From Eledone cirrhosa (Eukaryota), in NCBI GenBank assembly GCA_964016885.1, contig OZ024751.1, positions 48,670,001-48,734,000 on the forward strand: a stretch of DNA of 64,000 bases. The letters are read 5' to 3'. Under the pieces are notes generated by a model. That model saw only the letters and a program-made list of their open reading frames with translations, ran no database searches and was not told where the DNA came from. Of the stretch, positions 1,468 through 61,877 are shown piece by piece. The position numbers and the translations under genes were made by a program. The number at the start of each line of letters is the position of its first letter. Within the stretch, counting starts at the first letter, position 1.

Positions 1468-1531
<64 letters not shown>

Positions 1532-1546
1532 TTTTAATATATATGA

Positions 1547-1595
1547 GATTCTACAGGACTAGAACTGTTTCATTCTTTAGAAATCATCAGGAATC
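1547..1595 (-). ncRNA. Type I hammerhead ribozyme
   Basis: Minus strand reads GATTC-CTGATGA-TTTCTAAAGAAT-GAAA-CAG.TTCTAGTC.CTG-TA-GAATC: intact core, 5-bp stem I, 3-bp stem III, GUA site. Confidence 0.75.
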
Positions 1596-1646
1596 GATTC
1601 CTGATGATTTCTAAAGAATGAAACAGTTCTAAGTCTCTGTAGAATC
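1596..1646 (+). ncRNA. Type I hammerhead ribozyme
   Basis: GATTC-CTGATGA(1601-1607)-TTTCTAAAGAAT-GAAAC(1620-1624)AG..CT-GTA(1639-1641)-GAATC. Confidence 0.75.
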
Positions 1647-1748
1647 TCATCTATATTAAAACTGTTATACTCTGCTATGTATTGAGTACCTTACTTACTG
1701 TGGTTACCTCCGATTCAACCCGGAATAACGTATATATATATATATATA

Positions 1749-4332: not shown

Positions 4333-4557
4333 CATAAATATCTATTTAGATGCAGTTATACATACATACATAAACATGTATATATATATATATATACATG
4401 CATATCTAGATATTTGTACACATATTTATACCTGCAATATGAATCTCTGGGGTCGTAGACGAAATTATCTGGAAACAAAATGGAATGGAATGCTGGAAGA
4501 ATAGAAAGCCAAACAGCACACATGATATCAGGCTTTTGAAAGTTAACAAACCAAGAA

Positions 4558-4621
<64 letters not shown>

Positions 4622-4790
4622 ATATATATATGATAGAAGACTGGAAGGAGATGGCTGTTATCTATTCTGGTTTTCAAATTGACATCTTTTAATAAATTGT
4701 ATTATCTTCCATTCAATTTCCCCGATATGCTATTCAATTGATATATATATATATATATATATACATGCAAAGATATACAAATACATACGC

Positions 4791-4861
<71 letters not shown>

Positions 4862-5290
4862 TATAGATATATATATGTATGTATATATACGTGTATACAA
4901 GCATTCAAACATATATGCAAGTGTTCATATTTGTATGTTTAGACAGCTACGTTTATTAAAGTACATTTACATTATAAAATATACGCAACTTTAATGCATG
5001 TAAACATACACAGAAAATTTCACGCATTACTTATACGTATAGGCATATATATGCCTATACATGTATATATAAGATGGAGAGACAATAAGAGTCAATAAAG
5101 GGGGATGAATAGGAGCATATATATATACAGGTTAAATATACATGTGTTCATGCATTAGTGTATATATGTTTGCACATATATATGCAGGCATATATATGTG
5201 TTTATATGTACTATATATATATATATAATACATAATATAATACGAAATATATATATATATATATTTCATATTACATTATGTATTACGTAT

Positions 5291-5375
<85 letters not shown>

Positions 5376-5454
5376 ATATATATATGAAAACAGGGGGAAA
5401 GAGACGATTATGAGGAAGAAATATATATTTTTTCCTTTTTTTGTCTCTCTCTTC

Positions 5455-5531
<77 letters not shown>

Positions 5532-5549
5532 TATATATATATATATATA

Positions 5550-5611
<62 letters not shown>

Positions 5612-5931
5612 AAGTATATTGACAAATATTTGCCGTAATGTTTTCATTATCTGTAATTTAATATAAAGTTCTTTTCAGCTATTTTTTGTATAGAAAATAA
5701 GTTAGTTTTGTCCACAAACATTTCAAGATCTGAATATATTAGGAAAAAGAAAAAAATCATGTATTCAGCCTTTGTTATTGGAGTTTGCTTTTTATATTGG
5801 GAATCATAAAAAGATGTACATTATATTGCTCCTAGTTACGTATGTTTATAGACACGTACTTATGCAGACGTGCACGATATCTACACACACATAGACACGA
5901 ACACAGCTACACAGATTTGCACCTCTCCAGC

Positions 5932-5994
<63 letters not shown>

Positions 5995-6008
5995 TGCGTG
6001 TGTGTGTT

Positions 6009-6058
<50 letters not shown>

Positions 6059-6167
6059 CGCGTGTGTGTGTTTGTGTATATATATATATATATATATATA
6101 TACACCTCCATATACATATCCACCTAATTATATATATATATTTATATATATATATATATATATATAT

Positions 6168-6349
6168 AGGAAAATGTATGACCCCGACGTACAGAGCTCA
6201 AGCCGTTTCGACGGCTAATTCTGAGTACAGAAATAGCTTGAGCTCTGCCGTCGGGGTCATACTTCTTCCTATTTCCCACTCTATACCCTAAGTATTGAGT
6301 ACTCTGGTGCGTTATGGTCCATCTGGTTCCTTACCACAATTCCTTTGTT
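6168..6349 (+). mobile_element. Short palindromic element with half-hammerhead and tail (family C)
   Basis: Inverted arms ~6168-6203 and 6236-6270. GAAAC-GG..CC-GTC stem III can be reconstructed from the two arms. Tail contains TATTGAGTAC. Lies in (TA)n. Confidence 0.55.
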
Positions 6350-6658
6350 ATATATATATATATATATATATATACTGGGGTCTGTATATATATGCGTGTG
6401 AGCTATAAGTGTATATGTGCAGTCTGTGTGAGTGTGTGAGTGTTTATGTCTACGTCTTTGTGTATGTATTTGTAAGAACACATTATAGATCACCTTATAT
6501 ACACATATCACTTACTCATCAAAACTTCTCTAACCATTGTATACTATACAACACACCATATATACGTATATATATATATATACATATATATACTATATAT
6601 ATATATACTATATATATATATACTATATATATATATATATACTATATATATATACATA

Positions 6659-6711
<53 letters not shown>

Positions 6712-6757
6712 TATATATATATATATACTATATATATATACTATATATATATACATA

Positions 6758-6811
<54 letters not shown>

Positions 6812-8649: not shown

Positions 8650-9800
8650 AAAGATCCTAAGCCCGCGAATGACTCCGCAATTCTGCCACGCTCCTGCACA
8701 TCATTTTGCAGATGTGACACTCAGGAGGCTCCCGCATAGTCCTGAAGGTAACCTGCGCCTTATCCGCTCTCATGTGCTGATTGAGTCCAGCATCATTCGT
8801 ACAATCCTTGCTGCAAAACCAGACACGAATTTCCTGCATGCCTTTCACGGTGGGCACCAACGTAATCTTACCTTTCACGGAGGGCACCAACGTAATCATA
8901 CCTTTCACGGAGGGCACCAACGTAATCATACCATTCACGGAGGGCACCAACGTAATCATACCATTCACGGAGGGCACCAACGTAATCATACCATTCACGG
9001 AGGGCACCAACGTAATCATACCTTTCACGGAGGGCACCAACGTAATCATACCTTTCACGGAGGGCACCAACGTAATCATACCATTCACGGAGGGCACCAA
9101 CGTAATCATACCATTCACGGAGGGCACCAACGTAATCATACCATTCACGGAGGGCACCAACGTAATCATACCTTTCACGGAGGACACCAACGTAATCATA
9201 CCATTCATGGAGGGCACCAACGTAATCATACCATTCACGGAGGGCACCAACGTAATCATACCATTCACGGAGGGCACCAACGTAATCATACCATTCACGG
9301 AGGGCACCAACGTAATCATACCTTTCACGGAGGGCACCAACGTAATCATACCATTCACGGAGGGCACCAACGTAATCATACCATTCACGGAGGGCACCAA
9401 CGTAATCATACCTTTCACGGAGGGCACCAACGTAATCATACCATTCACGGAGGGCACCAACGTAATCTTACCTTTCACGGAGGGCACCAACGTAATCATA
9501 CCTTTCACGGAGGACACCAACGTAATCTTACCTTTCACGGAGGGCACCAACGTAATCATACCTTTCACGGAGGACACCAACGTAATCTTACCTTTCACGG
9601 AGGGCACCAACGTAATCTTACCTTTCACGGAGGGCACCAACGTAATCATACCTTTCACGGAGGACAATAACATAATCGACCCCAGACTGCTGATTGCTGT
9701 GAGGTCTTAAATGACTAGCAAGCCCAGTAGGAGAAAGAACCAATGTAATCTTTCCGCAGATATTACAGATATGCTGCCACCAGATTAAAACCTGACACAA
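8650..9800 (-). pseudogene. C2H2 zinc-finger-encoding remnant (probably LINE C-terminus) split by a minisatellite
   Basis: CNICGK..GLASHLRPH on one side of the array; WFCSKDCTNDAGLNQHMR and CHICKMMCRSVAELRSHSR on the other. Confidence 0.5.
8841..9676. repeat. 30-bp minisatellite, 27 full units plus one degenerate
   Basis: Unit CC(T/A)TTCACGGAGG(G/A)CACCAACGTAATC(A/T)TA, head-to-tail with no spacers. Confidence 0.97.
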
Positions 9801-12403: not shown

Positions 12404-12607
12404 GGGCGGTGGATTGGCAGTATCGGTAGAGGGTGGGACGCCATGCTTTCTAGCATAGTTACGTCCCTTTACATCTGAGTTCAAATCCCGCCGAGGTTAA
12501 CTTTGCTTTTCATCCTTAAGGGGTCGATAAAATATAGTACCAGTAATGTACTGGAAATTGCTGGTCTTGTGCCTAAAGTAGAAACAATTATTATTACTAT
12601 TATTATT
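12404..12607 (+). mobile_element. tRNA-derived SINE (family 1), full length
   Basis: A box TGGCAGTATCGG, B box GAGTTCAAATCC, central GCTTTTCATCCTT..GGGGTCGATAAAA..GTACCAG, 3' CTTGTGCCTAAAGTAGAAAC plus (ATT)n. Confidence 0.9.
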
Positions 12608-12713
12608 GTTGTTGTTGTTGCTGTTATTATCATTGCTAATAAGGATTATAATATTACAACTACTACTACTACCACTACTACTACTACTGCTACTACTACT
12701 ACTACTACTACCG

Positions 12714-13545
12714 ATAATGATTCTTTCTACTTTAGGCACAAGGCCAGCAAATACCCAGTGCATTACTGGTACTTTATTTTATGGACCCCGTAAGGATGAA
12801 AGGCAAAGTTAACCTCGGCAGGATTTGAACTCAGCACATAAAGGGCCATAACACTATGGTGCAACGCATGATGTCTGACGCTCTACCGATTCTGCCAATC
12901 GACCACATTGATGATAATGGTTTCTTATACAGACACAAGGCCAGCAATTTGTGGGAAGCGGAAAGTCGATCAAATCGACCCCAGTGCGTAACTGGTACTT
13001 TATTGAACCCGTAAGGATGAAAGGCAAAGTTAACGTCGGTGGGATTTGAACTCAGATAATAAAGGGACGTAACTCTATGCTGCAAAGCATGTTGTTCGAA
13101 GCTCTACCGATACTGCCAATCAACCGCCATAATAATAATAATAATAATAATAATAATTATTGTTATTTCTTCTTTTGGCATAACGCCAGCAATTACCCCA
13201 ATGCATTACTGGTACTTCATGTTATGTACCCCGTAAGAATGAAAGGCAAAGTTAATCTCGACTGGATTTGAACTCAGAACGTAGAATGCCAAAACTCCAT
13301 GCCGCAATGCCTGGTTTCCGACGCTCTAACGATTCTGCCAATCCACCACCATAATAATTGTTTCTACTTTTGGAACAAGGCCAGCAATTATAACAGTGCA
13401 TTACTGGTACTTTAATTTATCGACCCCGTAAAGATGAAAGGCAAAGCTAACCTCAGCGGCATTTGAACTCAGAACATAAAGGGCCATAACTCTATGCCAC
13501 AAAGCATAATTTCCGACGCTCTACCGATTCTGCCAAATCCACTAA
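12714..13545 (-). mobile_element. Four tandem family-1 SINEs
   Basis: Units at ~12714-12906, 12914-13128, 13150-13350 and 13351-13545, each with reverse-complement A/B boxes and an (AAT)n or AAT junction. Confidence 0.9.
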
Positions 13546-15736: not shown

Positions 15737-17066
15737 TAAGACCCGCTTCATTGTAGTTAGCTAGAGCAGGATATAGTGATAAGATTATGTACATAGATAA
15801 TGATAGACAAACTAAACAAAATAACAACTATTTTAATTACGGCCACAACCTTAACAACTATAATAGAAAGCATTACAATAATTCCAAAAGCCAAAAAAGA
15901 AATAGAACTAGGAACATAATATGGTTTGCCCCCCCCTTCTCACTAAACATTAAAACCCACATCGCTAAACTATTTTTTAAAGCTCTTGATAATCGCTTCC
16001 CTAGAACACATAGGTATCACTCAATTTTCAATAGACATACTATAAAATTAACCTACTCATCCACCAAAAATTTAGCACAAAATATTAATAGAATAAATAA
16101 TAGGAACTTAAAACCTAGCGATAATAGCATAAATAATATACAAGTTAACAAATGTAACTGTAGAGATAGATCTAAATGTCCGTTAAATAACAACTGCTTA
16201 GTTAAAAATATAATATACAACTGTAATGTTAAAACGGACTCTAATTCTTTTAACTACGTCGGTTCCACATCGACGGAATTTAAACTTCGCTATAATAACC
16301 ACAAGAATTCTTTCACAGATCCAAGCAAAAAATCTTCAACTGCACTATCAGGCGTACTCTGGCAACTTAGGCAAGATAACGTTAGATATTCGACGGCTTG
16401 GAATATAGTCTCAAGAGGGATTCCTTTTAATTCATCCTCTGAGACATGTGACCTCTGCGCGGAGGAGATATTCTTTATACTAAAATCTAAAAATTCCCTT
16501 AATCTACGGACAAATTTATTCAGTTGCTGCAAACATAGATTGAACTCAACTTTTAAATATAAATTTAAATTTAAAATGTAGTATATTTAGTTTGATTTGT
16601 AATTATTTGGGAAACTAGCCGATAAATCTTTCGATTTCTTCTTTTTATTCTTCTTTTTATTTTTATTTTAAACATTCTTCATGAAAAATTAAACTACCCT
16701 AAAAGTTGATGCTCCAAATATATCGAATAAACGTTACACTAGATAAACTTCTATATTAAATATAAGAACATATGTAGACCAAATGGGCATCCTAAACTTT
16801 TGAAATGATTTCTGCTAGACGCGATTTGGTAAATAATTTTTAGCTTTATCTGTTTTCGACTCTGATGCTTATAATGAACTTGGCAATATATTGTCAATTA
16901 ATTTTGAAGGGTTGATCTTTGTGGTCGATTTGCGTGGCATACTATGTTTTTATTTTTATTTTTATTTTTATTTTTATTATTTTAATATTTTTTAATATTT
17001 TTAATATTTTTAATATTTTTATTTTTAATATGTAATATTTTTTATTTTTTAGTTTTCTATTTTATT

Positions 17067-19918: not shown

Positions 19919-20117
19919 ATATTTAATATAGTATTGGCTTCTACAGGATTAGAACTGTTTCACTCGGGAGAAATCATTAAGGGCTTCCTGGTGATTTCTC
20001 CCGAATTAAACAGTTCTAGTCCTGTAGAAGCCATTTCTATATTAAATATTTATACTCTGATATGTATTGAGTACCTTACTTACTGTGGTTACCCCCCGAT
20101 TGAATACGGGATAAACT
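19919..20117 (+). mobile_element. Palindromic dual-hammerhead element, family A, diverged copy
   Basis: Palindrome ~19919-20049 with the same tail as 1663-1730. HHR cores are decayed. Confidence 0.75.
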
Positions 20118-21312: not shown

Positions 21313-22156
21313 CAATAATTGATATATATATATATACATATATAAAGATAGATATCGATAAGGTTGGACATGTACAGTTTTCCGCGTCAATATGAATATG
21401 GACAGCCACAATAACTAAATTAAGCAAGTGTAGCCGTTAGCTACGTATTAACCTCATTGAAGTAAAGGAAAGCTTAACAACATGCCCTGCAGATTAACTA
21501 CTGATAGGCTGGCTGCCAATTTCTTGATACTTGGGATAAATCACCACAAAAAGTCCACTCAAATGTTGAATTTGAGCTCTACATCCACCTATGAATGTCT
21601 CTCGACCTAATCGGCTGTGATAACTTGCCTTGTAGATTGACATACACATTGACTTAAACGTATTGAATCATATTGGCATAAACATATCGACATACACATA
21701 TTAACACGCACACATTCACCGAGTAAATCACGGTACTTCTATCTACTGGGCTGGGTGAAATGCTAGAAATTAAAGGGTAACATGTATAAAAAATAAATGA
21801 TGCAGGTTTGGTTCAATAAATGATGTGACTGGCTGTTGAAAATGTGGCAAGCACGATTGGAACGCTTTCGGTGAGTTGTCATAGTCGCTTGAGTGTCGGA
21901 GGAAATGCTTCACTCTATTTGTTCTGGTTCTATGTTCAAAGTCCACCAAGATAAACTTTGCCTCTCATTCTCTCTGGGATTCAGCCCACGGTAGTGTTTG
22001 GCTGAATTGTACGAGTAGCGGACATTTGGTGTGGATCTGGTGTGTGGCGTTGTATACAGCTTTGCAGATGGTGTGTCTGGATAGCATTGCATTGGTGTAG
22101 AATTATTTACATTCAAGTCTAGGTAATTGACGGTCTTAGTTACGTATATGTATATA

Positions 22157-22660
22157 AATCGTTTCTACCTTTTGGCACAAGGCCAGCAATTATCCCAGTG
22201 TATAACTGGTACTTTATTTTATCGACCCCGTAAGGATGAAAGTCAAAGTTAACCTCGGCTATAATACCTTGATATATAATTGTTTCTACTTTTGGCACAA
22301 GGCTAGCAATTATCTCAGTGTATTACTGGTACTTTATTTTATCGACCCCGACATGATGAAAGGCAAATTTAATCTTGGCGGTATTTGAACTCAGAGGGCC
22401 GTAACTCTTTACTCCAAAGCATGGCGTCCGCCCCTCTATTGATACTGCCAATCCACCGCCCTTTGTATATAATTGTTTCTACTTTAGGCACAAGGCCAGC
22501 AATTACCCAGTGTATTACTGGTACTTTATTTTATCGACCCTGTAAGGATGAAAGGCAAAGTCAACCTCGGCGGGATTTGAACTCAGATCGTAAAGGGACG
22601 TAACTATGCTTGAAAGCATGGCGTCCGACCCTCTACCGATACTGCCAATCCACCGCCCTT
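22157..22660 (-). mobile_element. Three tandem family-1 SINEs (one 5'-truncated)
   Basis: Repeated GTTTCTACTTT.GGCACAAGG..GGATGAAAGGCAAAG..GATTTGAACTC..CTGCCAATCCACCGCCC. Confidence 0.9.
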
Positions 22661-28378: not shown

Positions 28379-30620
28379 AATAAAAATTATCAATCTAACT
28401 AGTGCAGAACCAACACCCAACCTTAACAACTTACTCTCCAAAGGTCTTACATTCACACCGACCCCACTACGTCCTAACTACTATGAAATGAAGGAAGACA
28501 TAACAGACTTCTGTAGAAAGTTACGACTCAGTGAACAACTATTCGACCAGTAGAATGAGGATAAATCATTAGCCAGAAATAGAAGCAATTACACCCCATC
28601 AAAAGGTAGAAGTAAAATCCTGAACGAATTCTGTGAACACATCACAAACTTCCCTTATCAACACTTGCACAGACAAAAACACAAGCCAACCTCATCAAGA
28701 AAGAATGGGAAGAATTAAATAGATTAAAAATCGACAGAACCATTACAATTAAAGAGGGTGATAAAGGGAGTACAGTAGTCCTAATAGAGGCAGAATTCTA
28801 TATCAACTTAGCGTTCTCCACTTTGGAAAACGAAATATACTACGAAAAGGCTGAACACTACAATCAACAGAAAATTATGAGAAACCTAAAAACGATGATC
28901 AACCAATACAAAGAAGGACTCACTAACAAGGAATTCAGCTTCATCACAGACTTCACAAGTAAATCCAGCCTTTTCTACGGTATCCCTAAAGTACATAAAA
29001 GCGAATTAATAAGTAAGGCATGCAAGGAAGCCACAGGCATAGTCATCAATGTCCCCTCACCCAATGACCTCAAATTAAGACCTATAATAGCAGGCCCCGC
29101 TTGCGAAACCCAGCGCCTTAGCAACTTCATTAATACCCTTCTCAAGCCTTTTCTCAAACACATCAAAAGCTATATGAGGGACGACCTAGATATGCTCAAT
29201 CACCTCCCTAATATGCCCCTTTCTGAACAAACCCTACTAGTAACGTTCGATGTAGTCAACCTATACTCCAACATCCCCCACAACCTAGGAATAGAAGCTA
29301 TCCAATTCTGGCTGGATAATTACCACAATGAACTCCCACAACGCATCAAAAAAGAATTCGTGATAGAGGGACTCAAATTTATCTTGGAGAACAATTACTT
29401 CGTTTTCAATAACAAACCCTACAGGCAGAAATCTGGGACCGCTATGGGAACGAAAACAGCCCCCACTTATGCCAATCTAGTCATGGGATACCTGGAAATC
29501 ACCCTCTACACTAAAGTACTAAACAAATTTGGAAACACTCTCCACTTACACATAGAAAGGAACTGGAAGCGATATCTAGATGACTGCTTCATCCTTTGGC
29601 ACGAAAACATCGAGGAACTTAAAGAATTTCACACCTTTATAAATGGGCTCAACACGAATATTAATACAGCCATCAACAAATCCCCTTCCTCGACATCCTC
29701 ATTAAGATCAATAACCAAAAAATAGATACAGACATATACTACAAGCCCACAGACTCAAAGCAATATCTTCCTTTCAACTCTTGCCACCCTAGACACGTTA
29801 AAATTAATATTCCCTACAACTTAGCCAAGAGAATCTGTACTATAGTCTCCAATAAAAACACCTGCTACTTACTACTACAATAACTAAAGGACACACTCAT
29901 AGGCTGGGACTACCCTGCATCACTAATTGACAATGGAATCCAACGTGCCCTAAAATTCAGTACCCAGGACCTTAGACACCCTAAAGTAAATCAACCGAAA
30001 CTAAAAGCTCTTCCATACATCTCCACACACAACCCCCTCAACAATGAGGCCTTTGACACCATCCCCCAGAACATCCCTGTGTTGAAAAAGGACCATAGAA
30101 TGAACCAAATCCTACGAACACACGATATCATAAAGAGCAAAAGACAATCTAAGTCAATGAAAAACATCCTAACACATGCCAATGTACTGCCAACCACAAC
30201 AACGAAACCTACAGTAAAGAAATGCGATAGACCCAACTGTGGCATATGCATCAACCTAATAGAGGGTTCGGAATTCTATTTCAAAGAAGGACAACGTTTT
30301 ATAGTAAAACACAATTTCACATGCGCATCAGAAAATCTAATATATGTATTAACTTGCTCAGGTTGTCGAGAACAATACATAGGCCAGACCCAATACAGCC
30401 TCCGCCAACGCATGACTGTCCATATTAAAATAGGTCCAAATTAAAATACGGGAATACAGGAAAATACCACTGAGTGAACACATTGATACCTGTGCCGCCC
30501 AAAACCATCCCAACTTCAGAATCTTTCCCCTTTACAAATTTAATGATAATGCCACCCACACCCAGCGCATCAGCAAGGAATCTCACTTTATTAACAAATA
30601 CGGACCCCGTCTAAACACTT
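28379..30620 (+). pseudogene. Disrupted Neptune-type PLE ORF (RT plus Cys linker plus GIY-YIG)
   Basis: IINL..LLSKGLTFTPTP, FYGIPKVHK, LRPII, FDVVNLYSNIP, GTAMG, RYLDD, KCDRPNCGIC, NLIY..YIGQT. Several stops and frameshifts. The element probably extends ~27400-31060. Confidence 0.9.
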
Positions 30621-36134: not shown

Positions 36135-36325
36135 GGCGGTGGATTGGCAGTGTCGGTAGAAGGTTGGACGCCATGCTTTGATGCATAGAGTTACGGCCCT
36201 TGCCATTCTGTGTTCAAATCCCGCCGAGGTTAACATTGCCTATCATCCTTATGGGGTCGATAAAATAAAGTACCAGTAATACACTGGGTAATTGCTGGCC
36301 TTGTGCCTAACGTAGAAACAATTAT
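36135..36325 (+). mobile_element. Family-1 SINE, full length
   Basis: A box, B box, central domain and CCTTGTGCCTAACGTAGAAAC end. Confidence 0.9.
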
Positions 36326-36994
36326 ATATATATATCGCTCACCCGGCAAACAGATGACAGGGCAATGAAGAAATACAACCAAAATAGTAATAAAGAATAT
36401 ATAGCAGGTGGTTATAGTATATTCATAAAACAAACGCGTATTAAAGTCAAACCTCAGTCTTCAACGCATTTACTCTAGTATATAAACACCTGTGTTAAAC
36501 ACCAACAAAAACGGCAGAAAATCAAGTGTCAAGATTTAGCTTAAGAAATGAGTTTTAGATGCTGTGTGTCGAATTGGCGAGACAGTCTCGATGCTCGATC
36601 ATAGAATGTTTACCTCATTATCACTGTTAATTTGTTGGATATAACTCCACATTATTCTGCTGCTGAAAAAGTAATTCGTTTGTCTTTAAAATAAATAGGT
36701 ATGAAAGCTGAACAACGGTTTAGATGAGAGCCGACTGTTATAACACTAAAATATACTTTATGAACCTGAAATAGTTATAGAGTGTATGTGGATTAATACC
36801 GAAAGAGATATGAACATAGACCTAAATGATTCCAAGCTAGATACTGGATAAGTGTCTATTTTATATATTTTCGACACCAACGCACACGCCACACCACACA
36901 CATATATATATATATAATTATATATATATATATATAATTATATATATATATATATGTGTGTGTGTGCGTCTGTTTATCTGTTTGTCTGTGTATG

Positions 36995-46058: not shown

Positions 46059-49000
46059 TTAAAAAAAACAACAAAAAGAAAACCCCGTGACCAAGAAATA
46101 CCGGGATGGCGGCCGGCGGGGAATAGCCATGTCTCTAGGGGAGAACGACCCCTCTAGTCTTGGTTGACACTCGTTCTAGAAGTGGTAACACGAAAAGATT
46201 ACCCCTTGGCGGATAAGGATAAAACGCGACAAAATAAAGTAGATGTCTAATGATGAAATCTCATACCGGATCGGCCGTCACCCGGGTAAAAAAGGGCCGC
46301 GTCCCTCAGAGAGCAACCAGACTGGGGTCGAAAAATCAGCTAATGGTTCAAACCTTCCCATCACTTCGGAGCTGGAGACCTCCCATAACCGGAATACTCC
46401 TACTGTTGGCCCTCCATGCTCACCACCAAGAAATCCAAAGAAAAAGAGAGAAAAATGGTCAAGGGAAGATAATAAAGAAGTCCTTGAGGCTTTCTACACT
46501 GCCATGTACTACCCATCAAATACATCGAATACAGAGCAAACATATATCAACTGGAAAAAGAAACATCCCGAAAACAGAGGCTATATTGACAGTAACAAAC
46601 TAGCCAATATACGAAGAAATATTGTAAGAAAAAAGTTACTAACTGATATAGAAATTGATCAGATCAAGCTAGTAGCACAAAGTCAGCGAAGGGAAAATGA
46701 AGCATGTGTCAGTGAAAACGAGGTAAACTGTAACACTTCGAATCCCAGAGTTGGGGCGGAATCACTGGCAACAGAACAAATTAAAGAAAGGAGCGAACAA
46801 GTGGAGGGAGTGCATGCTCAGGATGAAACTCCAAATGAAAATAATGAGATCGTAAATGATAAAGAAATGAATGAAAATGAACTTGCCAACTTGAAGGATG
46901 AAATTATGATCGAATGGATGAAAATGAAAGAATCTGACATGGGGGAACGAGACACCCTCCCTAAGATCCAGAACTCCAAACAGAACCAAAAGATAATACA
47001 CAAGACTAACATAATTCTCAAAAACATTATCATCACAAACAAACTAAGCATTACTGACTTAAATCATCTCTATTATGCATCGGCTAAAGTCACCACTCAC
47101 TTATGTGGAGTGAAGATGAAAAAACAAAGGAATTCCCACAAGAAATCTACTTGGCAAGATAACATCAATCGCCAAATAAACCTTCTCCGATCTGACATAG
47201 AAATTTTAACAAACTATAAAGTAGGTGAACATGTTAAACAAACTAAACTTAGAAAATTGAAAAAAAAGTACAGTATAAGATCAACATGTGACATAGACAT
47301 GCTGATAGAAACAATCAAGCAAAAAGTGTCGGCCAAAGCTGCTCGTATAAGGCGCTTTGAAAAACGATCTAGATTCTATAAGGACAATAATATGTTCAAA
47401 AACAACCAAAGAAACTTCTACAGAAAAATTGGTAAGTCAACAATAACTGCTAAATCAATACCACCCAAGGAGGAAGTGCAAGAATTCTGGGAAAAGATCT
47501 GGGCCGAAGAAAAAGTTCATAACATACATGCCCCATGGATAGACAGACAAATGAAAGAAACAGCTCACCTTGAAGAACAAACATGGGAAAATATAACAGT
47601 TGAACAGCTGCGCTTGGCTCTAAGAAAAACCAGCAAATGGAAATCCCCAGGAAAAGACAAAATACAAAACTTTTGGATAAATGCCTTCACAGAGTCTCAT
47701 GAGCTGTTAGCCCAACTTTACAATGAAATAGTTAAGGAGCCAGAAAAGATACCATCATGGCTAGTTAACGGCATTACATTCCTGCTACCGAAGAATGATG
47801 AGACAAACAATCCCAAAAATTACAGACCGATAACCTGCTTGACCACAATGTATAAAATTTTAACATCAGTCCTAACTGAATACACATATGACCACCTGAT
47901 AACAAATGACCTATTTCCCATTGAGCAGAAAGGGTGTAAACGAGGCTCATATGGCTGTAAGGATCAGCTTCTGGTTAACAAAATGATACTGGAAGATTGT
48001 CATAATAGACACAAAAATCTATCGATCGCTTGGATAGATTATAAAAAAGCATTTGATAGTTTGCCACACAGTTGGATTGAAAAATGTTTAGAGATTTTCA
48101 AAATATCCCCCGTTATCAGGAGGTTTTTGTCATTCAGTATGAGGACATGGAGAACGACACTCCTTTTGAATAGTGAAACAAAATCACTGGAAGCTGGAGA
48201 AGTTAACATTAATTGTGGAATTTTTCAGGGTGACTCTTTATCACCGCTTTTATTCTGCATCGCACTTATACCATTAAGTAAAATGCTCAGTGAAACAAAA
48301 CATGGATATAGAGTCTATGACAAAACCATTAATCACCTGTTCTACATGGATGACCTGAAACTATTTGCAAAAAATGATGAACAATTGCAAGGGCTATTAT
48401 CCACTGTGAAGCAGTTCAGTGATGACATTAAAATGGAGTTTGGACTGGATAAATGCGCCAAAGCAACGTTCACCAGAGGAAAGCTGCTGAAGAGTTCAGA
48501 CATTAATCTTGATCGGGGGAACGTGATAAGAGAGCTTGATCAAGAACAAACTTACAAATATCTAGGTGTTTGTGAAGGAGACGGAATCAAGCACTCGACA
48601 ATGAGGGAAAGGATAAGGAAGGAATGTTACCGCAGAGTCAGAGCAATCTTAAGAACGGAATTGAATGCAAGGAATAGGATCGATGCCATAAACACGCTTG
48701 CCATACCAGTAGTAACCTACAGTTACAATGTCATCAACTGGTCAAGCACAGAGATCCGTAGGCTCGATACAAAAATCCGAAAATTCTTAACCATGCACAG
48801 AATGCATCACCCTAAGGCAGACATAGATAGAATATATCTCCCTAGGAAAGAAGGAGGACGTGGGTTAATCCAGTTAGACATTGCGTTGAAAACTGCAACA
48901 ATTGGATTATCCACATATCTAAGGGAATCACATGATTGGATGATCAAACTCGTTTTGAAACACGAAAGCACCAAAAGATCATATTCCATTACAAAAGATG

Positions 49001-50057
49001 CACAAAGATACAGTAATGGACTACAAATTTCAGAAGTCCCATTTACTGCTGAAATGGAAAACACAGAAAAAGCAAAGCAGGTAAAAGTAACTGCAAAGAA
49101 AGAACTGCTACAGAAACTGGCTAAGAAATGGCAAGAAAAGCCTCTGTATGGAAAATACCCAGAGCGAGCTAACAATCCTGATGTTGACAAAACTTTAACC
49201 CATCAGTGGTTGGCATCCTCTGGACTGAAATCGGAGACTGAAGGACTGATTATATCCGCACAAGATCAGTGTCTGCCAACAAAAAATTACCAAGCCAACA
49301 TAATAAAAAATGGGTGCAGCCCATTATGCCGTGTATGCAAAAAACAACCAGAGACCATTGACCATATAATTTCAATGTGCAGTCCTATAGCTCCAACCGA
49401 ATACCTAAACAGGCATGACAGAGCTGCACAATACATACATTGGATAATGTGCAAGCATTTTGACCTGCCCCATCAAAAGAATTGGTGGGAGCATCAACCA
49501 CCTCCCATACTTGAAAAAGATCACATCTCAATCTTGTGGAACTTTAGCATCCAAACAGACCGAAAAATAGATGCAAATAGACCTGATATAATATTGAAGG
49601 ACTTTCAAAGGAGGGTATGCCTGCTAATTGATATGTCTGTTCCAATAGACAAGAATGTATCTATAAAAACATTTGAAAAATTGAGCAAGTATAAGGACCT
49701 GGAGATAGAAATTGGAAAAATGTGGAAATTGAGAACTAAAACAATACCAGTGGTTGTAGGCGCTCTGGGAATGATACCTAAGGGGTCTAACGACTACTTA
49801 TCGCAAATCCCAGGAAACCCGCGTATAGGAGAAATACAAAAGATAGTACTAATGGGAACTGCCCATATACTAAGGAAGATCCTGTCAATATAAGTACATC
49901 ACAAGTCTAAACACTAAGGATGCATGTGTGAATATGTGTGTTCTTTCTTGAACATGGCGGACCTTGTTGTCTCTTGAGGTCACTGGTTGTGACTTGGTGA
50001 TAACTCGTATAAACATAAAGCAAGATAAATGCAAATAATAATAATAATAATAATAAT
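46059..50057 (+). mobile_element. Full-length R4/Dong-clade non-LTR retrotransposon
   Basis: GC-rich 5' UTR, single ORF, ~140-nt 3' UTR and (AAT)n tail at 50034-50057. Confidence 0.9.
46243..49893 (+). CDS. RT plus CCHC plus restriction-like endonuclease polyprotein (1216 aa, intact)
   Basis: WKSPGKD, NYRPITCL, IDYKKAFDS, GIFQGDSLSP, YMDD, YKYLG, GGRGL, CRVC..HIISMC, RHD, RPD..D..KLSKY. Confidence 0.95.
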   Translation: MSNDEISYRIGRHPGKKGPRPSESNQTGVEKSANGSNLPITSELETSHNRNTPTVGPPCSPPRNPKKKREKWSREDNKEVLEAFYTAMYYPSNTSNTEQTYINWKKKHPENRGYIDSNKLANIRRNIVRKKLLTDIEIDQIKLVAQSQRRENEACVSENEVNCNTSNPRVGAESLATEQIKERSEQVEGVHAQDETPNENNEIVNDKEMNENELANLKDEIMIEWMKMKESDMGERDTLPKIQNSKQNQKIIHKTNIILKNIIITNKLSITDLNHLYYASAKVTTHLCGVKMKKQRNSHKKSTWQDNINRQINLLRSDIEILTNYKVGEHVKQTKLRKLKKKYSIRSTCDIDMLIETIKQKVSAKAARIRRFEKRSRFYKDNNMFKNNQRNFYRKIGKSTITAKSIPPKEEVQEFWEKIWAEEKVHNIHAPWIDRQMKETAHLEEQTWENITVEQLRLALRKTSKWKSPGKDKIQNFWINAFTESHELLAQLYNEIVKEPEKIPSWLVNGITFLLPKNDETNNPKNYRPITCLTTMYKILTSVLTEYTYDHLITNDLFPIEQKGCKRGSYGCKDQLLVNKMILEDCHNRHKNLSIAWIDYKKAFDSLPHSWIEKCLEIFKISPVIRRFLSFSMRTWRTTLLLNSETKSLEAGEVNINCGIFQGDSLSPLLFCIALIPLSKMLSETKHGYRVYDKTINHLFYMDDLKLFAKNDEQLQGLLSTVKQFSDDIKMEFGLDKCAKATFTRGKLLKSSDINLDRGNVIRELDQEQTYKYLGVCEGDGIKHSTMRERIRKECYRRVRAILRTELNARNRIDAINTLAIPVVTYSYNVINWSSTEIRRLDTKIRKFLTMHRMHHPKADIDRIYLPRKEGGRGLIQLDIALKTATIGLSTYLRESHDWMIKLVLKHESTKRSYSITKDAQRYSNGLQISEVPFTAEMENTEKAKQVKVTAKKELLQKLAKKWQEKPLYGKYPERANNPDVDKTLTHQWLASSGLKSETEGLIISAQDQCLPTKNYQANIIKNGCSPLCRVCKKQPETIDHIISMCSPIAPTEYLNRHDRAAQYIHWIMCKHFDLPHQKNWWEHQPPPILEKDHISILWNFSIQTDRKIDANRPDIILKDFQRRVCLLIDMSVPIDKNVSIKTFEKLSKYKDLEIEIGKMWKLRTKTIPVVVGALGMIPKGSNDYLSQIPGNPRIGEIQKIVLMGTAHILRKILSI

Positions 50058-51255: not shown

Positions 51256-51341
51256 AGTTTTAATATAGATAAGATTCTACAGGACTAGAACTGTTACATT
51301 CTTTAGAAATCATCAGGAATCTGATGATTTCTAAAGATAAC

Positions 51342-51342
<1 letters not shown>
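51256..51342 (+). mobile_element. Family A element, internally deleted
   Basis: Left arm as 1531-1595, then CTGATGATTTCTAAA joined to the tail end GATAACG. Confidence 0.75.
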
Positions 51343-51391
<49 letters not shown>

Positions 51392-57947: not shown

Positions 57948-58010
57948 TTTTCATTATACGTATTTCAGGGATACCATATTAAAAATATGGCATGCCTTCG
58001 TCAGATAAAA
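57948..58010 (-). ncRNA. Type I hammerhead ribozyme
   Basis: TTTTAT-CTGACGA-AGGCATGCCATAT.TTTTA.ATATGGTATCCCT-GAAAT-ACGT-ATA-ATGAAA. Confidence 0.7.
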
Positions 58011-58372: not shown

Positions 58373-58400
58373 ATATATTGTAGGTCTGAAAGTAAATAAT

Positions 58401-58583
58401 TGTTTCTACTTTTGGCACAAGGCCACCAATTGTCCAGTGTATTACTGGTACTTTATTTTATCGACCCCGTAAGGATGAAAGGCAAAGTTAACCTTGGCGG
58501 GATTTGAACTCAGAATGGCAAGGGCCGTAACTCTATGCGTCAAAGCATGGCGTCCGACCCTCTACCGATACTGCCAATTCACC
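58401..58583 (-). mobile_element. Family-1 SINE with 18-bp TSD
   Basis: GGTCTGAAAGTAAATAAT at 58383-58400 and 58584-58601. Confidence 0.9.
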
Positions 58584-58713
58584 GGTCTGAAAGTAAATAA
58601 TACCAAGTCTCTAGATAAGGTAAATGGACTTTTCTTCTCAGTGAAAAGATACATGCTTCTAGAAATGGCGCGTCAGATTAAGAGACATAGTCATTTTATT
58701 CCTTTATTATTTT

Positions 58714-59040
58714 AGTATCGGTCGAGCGTGAGACACCATGCTTTGTAGCATAGAGTTATGGCCCTTTGTGTTCTGAGTTCAAATCCATCGAGGTTCACTT
58801 TGCCTTTCATCCTTACGAGGTCGATTAAACAAAGTACCAGTGATGCACTGGGATAATTGCTAACCTTGTACCAAAAGTAAAAACTCCAATTCTTTCCAGC
58901 ATAGAATTACGGTCCTTGCCATTCTGAGTTCAAATCCCACCGAGATTAACTTTGTCTTTCATCCTTACGCTGTCGATAAAATAAAGTACCAGTGATGCAC
59001 TGGGGTAATCGCTGGCCTTGTGCCAAAAGTAGAAAAAATT
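58714..59040 (+). mobile_element. Two tandem family-1 SINEs
   Basis: Two GAGTTCAAATCC boxes and two 3' ends. Confidence 0.85.
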
Positions 59041-59415
59041 ACTTTACTTGTCTCACTCATTAAATTACTACCAAGCTGGTGCATCGCCTGATAGGTTTGT
59101 AAACGTTTGCCTAATTATCACACACACAGACAAACACTACATAGATATATACATATATTTACACTTCTATATACATAAATCCCACGCCTTTATATATGTG
59201 TGTGCTGCGTAGTATTGAACCAGTAATAATAAGCTTTATATCGGTTGAAGTACATTATAATTTCTCTCTCTATAATGATATCAAGAATCAGTATTTCAAG
59301 TTATGTGGAAATCCTGGCTTATGTAGTGTTAAAATACACTGTGATTATATTTAGACCATGGTAACTCGGGGCACTTCAGGTTTGGTGGACCACTCATACA
59401 ACAAAACGCTCCCCC

Positions 59416-60668: not shown

Positions 60669-61647
60669 AAATATATTCGTGTGTGCGTACATAAGATTTT
60701 CTACACACGTATTAAGAAATACATAGGTGTCCAAAAACGATAAGTTAGCGATGTGCGACTACTAGTAACGCAGCAGTTTATGGCAGTTATAACTGTTTCT
60801 AACTGTTACAGATATTCCAGAGAGCGTCTGATTTGCGTTTGTCTCTGATATTATTTGATAAGCAATGCTATTATTAACTTCTATTAAAGATCATTAAAAT
60901 ACATCAATTTTCAAATATCTCATAAGTCTAATACAGAAAATTCTAATAAAGTCATTGATAAATTGTCATTTTGGTGTGTCTTGATATTATGGCCGTCTCG
61001 ATTTATCAGATTATGTAAGGGAATTTACGAGTGTTCTTTGTCAGTTTCGTATTCATATATTCCTGCTTTTGCAAAGTTTTAGGAGTCATTACATATAGAA
61101 GAGCAGACCATTCTTTCGTCTACAGAAACAATTATAATGATATTCGAGAAATCTATCTAGCTAGATAGCTAATATGAAACAATCGCAAATGGATAAAATA
61201 AGTTTTGTTCAGTTAAAAGAGATATCAAATCATAGCGGACATACTGCTGTTGCTGCTGCGGCTGCTGCTATTGCTGCTGGTGCTGCTGCTGCTGATAACT
61301 CTAATGTTGATGTAGATAGTGGTAGTGAAAATGATGAATAGTATGTGGATGTTCATGACGATGATGATAATGATTATGATGTTTAGGATAATGATAATCG
61401 TAGTGGCAAAGATGTCTGTCTATTCTGAACAGAAGTTGAGACATTCTTTCTAATGTGGCCGATTAACTTGATATCAATACATGTTTGGTAAATATTGTAT
61501 TGATATCTGTGAGATAAATAAATGACAAATTCATATCCACCAAAGTTCGAACTCGAAACGTAGAATAACTAAACTGATAGCATAGCTCATTGAACATAAA
61601 TATTTACAGAGTTTCAGAAGCTGAACTACATACAGAAACACAAACAG

Positions 61648-61877
61648 TAATGATTGTTTCTACTCTTGGCACAAGGCTAGCAATTACCCAAGTGCATTAC
61701 TGGTACTTTATTTTATCGACCTCGTAAGAATGAAAGGCAAAGTTAATCTCGGTGGGATTTGAACAGTAATAGTTGTTTCTACTTTTGGTACAAGGCTAGC
61801 AATTACCCCAGTGCATTACTGGTACTTTATTTTATCGACCCTGTAAGGATGAAAGGCAAAGTAAACCTCGGCGGGAA
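61648..61877 (-). mobile_element. Two 5'-truncated family-1 SINEs
   Basis: Two 3' halves separated by AACAGTAAT repeats. Confidence 0.85.

Follow-up and report, generated by a model that had tools for sequence, protein, structure and literature searches.

A palindrome with a hammerhead ribozyme motif on each strand may be a mobile unit in its own right, amplified as such, or a product that a larger element leaves behind anew each time it inserts. This question is raised by a locus in the 64-kb stretch of the Eledone cirrhosa genome analyzed here (hereafter, the window; contig OZ024751.1, positions 48,670,001 to 48,734,000). As the sequence-only reading of the window had described, a 132-bp palindrome (1531–1662; centre at 1595|1596; arm complementarity of 95.5%) is followed by a 68-nt tail (1663–1730) and sits in (TA)n, with a target microsatellite detected as a TRF array on the left (1427–1529) and a (TA)n/(CA)n microsatellite array on the right (1731–1914). 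Both arms satisfy a type I hammerhead descriptor, with CUGAUGA at 1601 on the plus strand and at 1590 on the minus strand, GAAA, a GUA triplet and a 5-bp helix I. The plus-strand motif (1596–1646) comprises helix I (1596–1600/1642–1646), CUGAUGA (1601–1607), GAAA (1620–1623) and a predicted cut at 1641|1642; its helix II is UUC/GAA with a U·U at the base, and its helix III has 4 bp and a private 2-nt loop insertion. In the minus-strand motif (1547–1595), the 5′ strand of helix I lies at 1595–1591, CUGAUGA at 1590–1584, GAAA at 1571–1568 and the predicted cut at 1552|1551. When the whole window was searched with Rfam, the 150 matches listed of 237 were all to miRNA models and fell on microsatellites, and in the search of 1590–1730 no hammerhead family came near its gathering score, the only match being Hammerhead_3 (12.7 bits, E = 4.1, versus a gathering score of 48.5). 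The ribozymes had been called complete and intact on each strand; the descriptor matches on both arms agree with this, but the U·U at the base of helix II and an Rfam score far below the gathering threshold qualify it.

The same reading had counted three copies in the window with one shared centre. The other two differ in their centres, have broken cores and fail the hammerhead descriptor. The compact palindrome at 19922–20114 (plus strand) belongs to a second, more diverged subfamily (81.5% identity; helix I GGCTTC/GAAGCC) and has the centre ATCATTAA-GGGCTTCC, with the cores mutated on both strands, and the degraded compact palindrome at 51257–51343 (plus strand) has a centre deletion, a mutated GAAA and a right arm whose deletion starts in helix II and spares just the final bases of the tail. 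One other descriptor pair is present in the 64 kb, a head-to-head pair at 58004 (minus strand) and 58148 (plus strand), about 144 bp apart, with CUGACGA/CUGAGGA, a long helix II and a tiny helix III, which probably represents the inverted ends of a different Penelope-like element (PLE) family. The window also holds open reading frame (ORF) fragments of other PLEs (15757–16500 and 29686–29859, both plus strand) akin to the PLE protein P0001 described below (35.6% identity over residues 505–728, E = 2e-43; the second hit is weak), a 30-bp minisatellite (8837–9677; 28 copies, 96% matches) that is open in several frames, a 1,216-codon open frame (46243–49890, plus strand) and a broken frame (42946–40123, minus strand) whose starts look by eye like a LINE-type endonuclease and reverse transcriptase (RT), and many copies, some of them tandem, of a SINE-like repeat of about 190 bp (12408–13545, 22145–22654, 36138–36334, 58394–59046, and 61643–61876).

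The arm is the terminal repeat (pLTR) of an autonomous PLE. At locus L039, an arm with its tail is followed by a 758-codon open frame for an RT and a GIY-YIG endonuclease, then by a 3′ region rich in microsatellites and by another arm, in a unit of 5,966 bp with the first ATG at +182; the frame runs uninterrupted through 4462–6790 of the locus (minus strand). Native sequence extends no more than about 7 nt upstream at the 5′ repeat of L039, which therefore has no TATA box of its own. The link to PLE pLTRs with hammerhead motifs and to mobilization by RT and GIY-YIG, proposed from the window alone, has thus found its partner element. On the scale of this element, the long arm of the window palindrome (1596–1730, plus strand) corresponds to +2 to about +134 of the PLE 5′ UTR, with 97% identity to the L039 segment preceding the 758-codon frame, and the short arm (1531–1595, minus strand) to inverted positions +2 to +66/67, with a 95.5% match to the right arm. 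The two meet head to head at 1595..1596, where copy-specific linkers in other copies and the TATA spacing place the parent's predicted transcription start (+1/+2), and in this copy the junction is linker-free. The tail (1663–1730, plus strand) runs on into the ORF in L039 and L056 and would be the stretch between two RT start sites, a meaning that follows the description of another PLE in PMC11167929; the long arm is likely to be a cDNA begun at the outer of these sites and the short arm a cDNA begun at the inner one. The pLTRs form a direct pair in L039 and inverted 135/68 ends in L033–L037 and L040–L044, and longer insertions keep both ends, with a 135-nt arm and an inverted 61–74-nt arm around 0.1–8 kb of element. 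Very long inverted arms of the same element occur within single insertions at L033 (933–7889; 2.7 kb) and L035 (1–9877; over 4 kb).

For P0001, the protein encoded by L039, 1,199 of 8,000 scored candidates are relatives (about 40–54% identity for the best), and YRDD is invariant in 67 aligned relatives. The fold closest to the structural model of P0001 (pLDDT of 90) is that of telomerase RTs (Foldseek E = 2.6e-9, TM 0.32), with TERTs as the top six matches. Pfam RVT_1 gave a hit in only 1 of the 67 family members, PF01541 matched P0001 below the cut-off (E = 0.019) and one relative at E = 1e-5, and NCBIfam and PDB sequence searches with P0001 returned nothing useful. The GIY-YIG domain is C-terminal, with VY (631–632) and YIG (647–649) conserved, and P0001 further contains D161-K162-T163, R83-W84-R85, C611-C613-C619 (CxCx5C), C711-C714 (CxxC), and C739-H741 (CxH). 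[quoted passage not shown] The parent element combines the features expected of a PLE, namely a single ORF with a telomerase-like RT, a C-terminal GIY-YIG domain, pLTRs with a tail and a hammerhead motif in the pLTR, and, as in the Hydra clade, it inserts into (TA)n, which flanks both sides of 48 of 50 copies with intact centres; by its motifs, the parent is a Hydra-type PLE. The hammerhead was compared across 19 distinct arms from the two subfamilies, collected with a search pattern that itself demanded most of the core: CUGAUGA is present in 18 of 19, and GAAA and GUA are present in all 19. Helix I, which begins at +1, covaries: across the 19 arms, which represent two subfamilies and few independent events, pair 1 is A-U or G-C and pair 3 is A-U or C-G. 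The parent element appears to maintain the motif.

The palindrome is no chance structure: the window itself excluded, 35 of the 40 genome candidates scored (of 928 found) are near-full-length copies with 94–97% identity. Genome-wide (3.0 Gb), there are 1,036 exact centres of the form GGAATC-N0-12-GATTCC, together with 11,275 exact hits for a hammerhead pattern of 31 nt and 8,108 for a tail pattern of 29 nt, part of the latter two counts stemming from tandem arrays, as indicated by strand imbalance; each reversed control gave 0. One head-to-tail array, L193 (C1:83679000–83684500), consists of at least 10 units of about 1.07 kb, made up of promoter region, hammerhead, tail and microsatellites; each unit could be transcribed and cut, which makes this the retrozyme-like arrangement, if there is any. 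For the junctions, we used samples ordered by position, which replaced 30 loci skewed to the best 200-mer matches and a set skewed to the query's own G. The first 100 tail matches on C1, taken without exception and hence representing one chromosome arm and exact 29-mer copies, comprise 52 compact palindromes, 35 copies that read through into the element, 11 without an adjacent inverted arm and 2 mixed cases. Inversion points in the 35 read-through copies are variable, from −6 to beyond −430, and the core start survives on both arms in no more than 21 of the 52 compact copies. A search for copies extending past the tail yielded two loci, one of them with native upstream sequence.

The centre appears to be rebuilt in every copy. 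The earlier proposal that the fixed architecture is amplified as a unit, with an invariant centre as its check, finds no support in the genome: centres are copy-specific, with 31 different linkers among the first 50 intact centres on C1; linkers are not tied to haplotypes, as 9 of 37 same-linker pairs share a haplotype versus 6.8 expected by shuffling (p = 0.21, 50 copies); and 35 of the 100 sampled copies extend upstream into element sequence. Among the haplotypes of compact copies, five are also found in copies that bear the promoter. Many of the longer linkers are re-copies of neighbouring arm sequence, and such re-copying is seen in microhomology-mediated end-joining. Two compact palindromes 2.3 kb apart, L188 and L189 (C1:196961500–196964450), are identical in linker and haplotype and probably arose by local duplication; the 50-copy counts include the two. 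Descent of unit from unit, as for a non-LTR retrozyme, was rejected on the lack of linkage between linker and haplotype in this small sample, in which rare secondary amplification is possible.

Variable inversion points and an autonomous PLE as the common source, named by the sequence-only reading as what would mark ordinary truncation by-products, were both found, but the stops are not random and pile up at the predicted transcription start. The 163 arm ends include 57 within the 7 nt from −3 to +4 but 10 within the 50 nt upstream of these; another 52 are at +5 to +54, and for this group trimming or early stops are needed. In 21 of 26 distinct read-through variants, which cover two subfamilies with different spacers, the first base of helix I comes 30 nt after a TATA box; a CCAAT motif is found further upstream, and the centre site fits an initiator consensus. 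In the 11,275 arms, the bases before the arm are native CCCA in 5,128 cases, GA in 1,694 and AA or TA in 368. Among the 50 centres, 27 of 100 cDNA ends, 11 from short arms and 16 from long arms, start with TC versus a shuffled mean of 4.9 (p = 1e-4), and the 13 TC-only centres found genome-wide divide into 7 on the short arm, 5 on the long arm and 1 unassigned. In the second subfamily, a hand count of the first 100 of 632 matches, with queries for G, C and A, gave G before +1 in 58 cases, native C in 30 and A in 12; among 30 copies retrieved with 60 nt of upstream sequence, the promoter region is present in 6 of 6 C copies and 0 of 20 G copies. An extra G of this kind marks the cap at full-length L1 5′ junctions, as reported in PMC11702581. 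In several of 25 GA contexts and most of 20 second-subfamily G contexts, the G is also readable as borrowed from the partner arm through microhomology, and the five cases in the 50-copy set with TC on the short arm only are mostly readable as templated re-copies too. RTs are also able to add C without a cap. Taking the motifs and the junction letters together, we infer that the centre is the predicted transcription start of the parent, with a cap.

The two arms of a copy are coupled. In 44 of 45 scorable copies the loop II variant of one arm recurs on the other, where 41% would be expected if the arms were independent; the arms therefore share a single template or source, or have been homogenized since. 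A single cDNA that folded back, or gene conversion at a later time, would account for these mirrored variants equally well. Among 65 copies with an adjacent inverted arm, the outer ends of the short arm concentrate at +67 (24), +60 (20) and +73 (8). Relative to the centre site, both arms extend past it in 10 copies, neither does in 52 and only one does in 1 (n = 63, after 2 of the 65 were dropped, their inverted piece excluding the arm; p = 9e-11).

We consider it probable that the palindrome is the hammerhead-bearing end of a Hydra-type PLE, in which two cDNAs have run off the 5′ end, predicted to be capped, of one sense RNA and have been joined head to head, anew at each insertion. The endonuclease would cut both strands of (TA)n, and the RT would begin at two internal sites in the 5′ UTR, one per DNA end, at about +134 and about +66. 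Each cDNA would be copied through the uncut hammerhead to +1, gaining a C opposite the cap, and host end-joining would fuse both 3′ ends by way of microhomology, leaving small deletions and templated insertions. The same two starts on the downstream pLTR copy of the RNA would give the longer inverted insertions, which would explain the coupling of the two arms. In vitro, the protein of a Poseidon PLE cuts and extends both DNA strands, with two internal RT starts bounding the tail and uncut hammerhead RNA as the template, as described in PMC11167929. We lean, by a small measure, toward the further view that compact palindromes record an intermediate of PLE insertion, in which both DNA ends prime on one capped sense mRNA at two internal sites and strong-stop-like run-offs are fused at the cap after failing to continue or jump. 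The compact product is likely a dead end.

Predicted folding bears on whether the palindromes could act as ribozymes. The G10.1-C11.1 pair that closes helix II is absent, with U·U in 17 of 19 arms; a natural U·U variant, the axolotl HHR_Amex2, is described in PMC7229834 as cleaving weakly as a monomer and better as a dimer. For an isolated arm, the hammerhead is not the predicted minimum-energy fold (−3.4 versus −9.2 kcal/mol), and the helix III segment is predicted to pair at −12.8 kcal/mol between two molecules versus −1.4 kcal/mol within one. A transcript of the whole palindrome is predicted to form a hairpin of −100 to −103 kcal/mol, lower in energy than the hammerhead fold by 67–68 kcal/mol, and whichever strand is transcribed, the antisense arm would come first. 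Lacking a promoter, and with their ribozymes buried by the predicted hairpin, compact palindromes are therefore likely inert. Of the claim that there are ribozymes in both polarities, the motif on both strands stands, but function is unlikely at the modelled cost of the hammerhead fold.

The main rival to joining of two cDNAs, which we regard as unlikely, is fold-back: one cDNA, the long arm, would run off the 5′ end of the RNA, fold, extend itself to +60–73 and join the other flank, again as a by-product made anew at each insertion. The variants shared by the arms in 44 of 45 copies, the passage of both arms or neither beyond +1 and the similar arm lengths in several long inversions would all follow from it. 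TC-only centres, however, are as frequent on the short arm as on the long (7 versus 5, small numbers), and on the short arm they could not be templated by fold-back without a later deletion; the commonest outer end of the short arm, +66/67, is fixed, as an RT start site would be (PMC11167929), and linkers of 0–1 nt would leave little for hairpin priming. Self-priming on an antisense template has been proposed in PMC3846280 for head-to-head PLE palindromes of Adineta vaga, which have the same geometry, but it predicts neither a centre at the position of a sense-strand TATA box and initiator nor an extra G on the sense side, and of all the readings weighed here we give it the least credence.

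The two-cDNA joining could also be kept with a different 5′ boundary, set by a splice acceptor (a T-rich tract plus CAG) or by a block to the RT at the base of helix I and not by a capped start, which seems to us quite improbable. The sequence upstream in the young subfamily is indeed T-rich..CCCAG, and an intron of Drosophila virilis Penelope ends at helix I (PMC4209133), but no common upstream exon, as splicing would share, is found in 25 GA contexts, and the second subfamily has AGTC-G at this site, so that AG does not immediately precede the bases retained, and its TATA spacing is unchanged; for the RT block, helix I should already be unwound once the RT reaches its 5′ strand. Very improbable, finally, is the model of the sequence-only reading, a non-autonomous hairpin element of about 200 nt amplified as a unit, even with its centres diversified later by breakage and repair at the palindrome tip. 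The 1,036 or more near-identical compact copies, their preferred outer ends and the few recurring linkers are in its favor; yet the recurring linkers occur on different haplotypes (p = 0.21) and are the ones that A+1 plus G would give, the TATA/CCAAT region is missing from compact copies, longer inversions with the same ends form a continuum, and the ribozyme fold is predicted to lose out to the hairpin by 67–68 kcal/mol.

The joining of two run-off cDNAs at a capped start bears on a question that PMC3846280, which favors antisense self-priming over a sense template, and PMC8557442 state as open, namely the origin of PLE head-to-head repeats; in vitro work on PLEs left the steps after priming unvalidated (PMC11167929). 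A literature search, mostly without subscription papers and supplements, found no paper on start-site-centred, cap-marked PLE palindromes. Such junctions, on both arms and in over a thousand young copies, provide a direct, testable prediction in vivo, and, if the reading is true, it would settle whether the template of head-to-head PLE palindromes is sense or antisense and would make PLE transcription starts readable from genome sequence alone. Back-to-back hammerhead pairs in animal genomes can be insertion scars and not bidirectional ribozyme elements. The value lies in the junction statistics rather than in the element: the parent works like an endonuclease-positive (EN+) PLE, and an inverted pLTR with a tail is an already published PLE insertion pattern, so the element itself is ordinary.

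The insertion unit described for EN+ PLEs (PMC8557442; PMC3846280) shares the head-to-head inverted repeat, one-sided tail, hammerhead in the repeat, microsatellite target and strong 5′ truncation; by contrast, the tail there is 30–40 nt and here 68 nt, about half of the sampled young insertions here lack ORF or promoter sequence, and the junctions cluster at the predicted start with an extra G. The likeness to the Hydra clade (PMC8557442) is one of motifs and extends over DKT, RW(R/K), CxCx5C, CxxC and CxH around the EN end, the C-terminal GIY-YIG, the hammerhead and the (TA)n target, whereas the usual unit of that clade is given as <3 kb and L039 measures 5,966 bp with its microsatellite-rich 3′ region. 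The Poseidon element PAc of Anolis (PMC11167929) has an AT-rich target, like the parent, and would resemble it in cutting and extension on two strands, two internal RT starts that bound the tail and an uncut hammerhead RNA as template, but it is of another clade and its ORF starts inside the hammerhead, not at +182. Animal non-LTR retrozymes (PMC7229834; bioRxiv 10.64898/2026.07.22.740005) are likewise small, non-coding and PLE-related, with a type I hammerhead; they are described as head-to-tail tandem repeats that give circular RNA, whereas the palindromes are dispersed and head to head with per-copy centres, and an identity with retrozymes was rejected on the absence of head-to-tail tandem units among compact copies. 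L1 twin priming (PMC11702581) similarly involves two primings on one RNA, an extra G at full-length 5′ junctions and microhomology joins, but its cDNAs copy different RNA segments, whereas here both cDNAs would extend to the 5′ end over a shared stretch, with a palindrome as the result.
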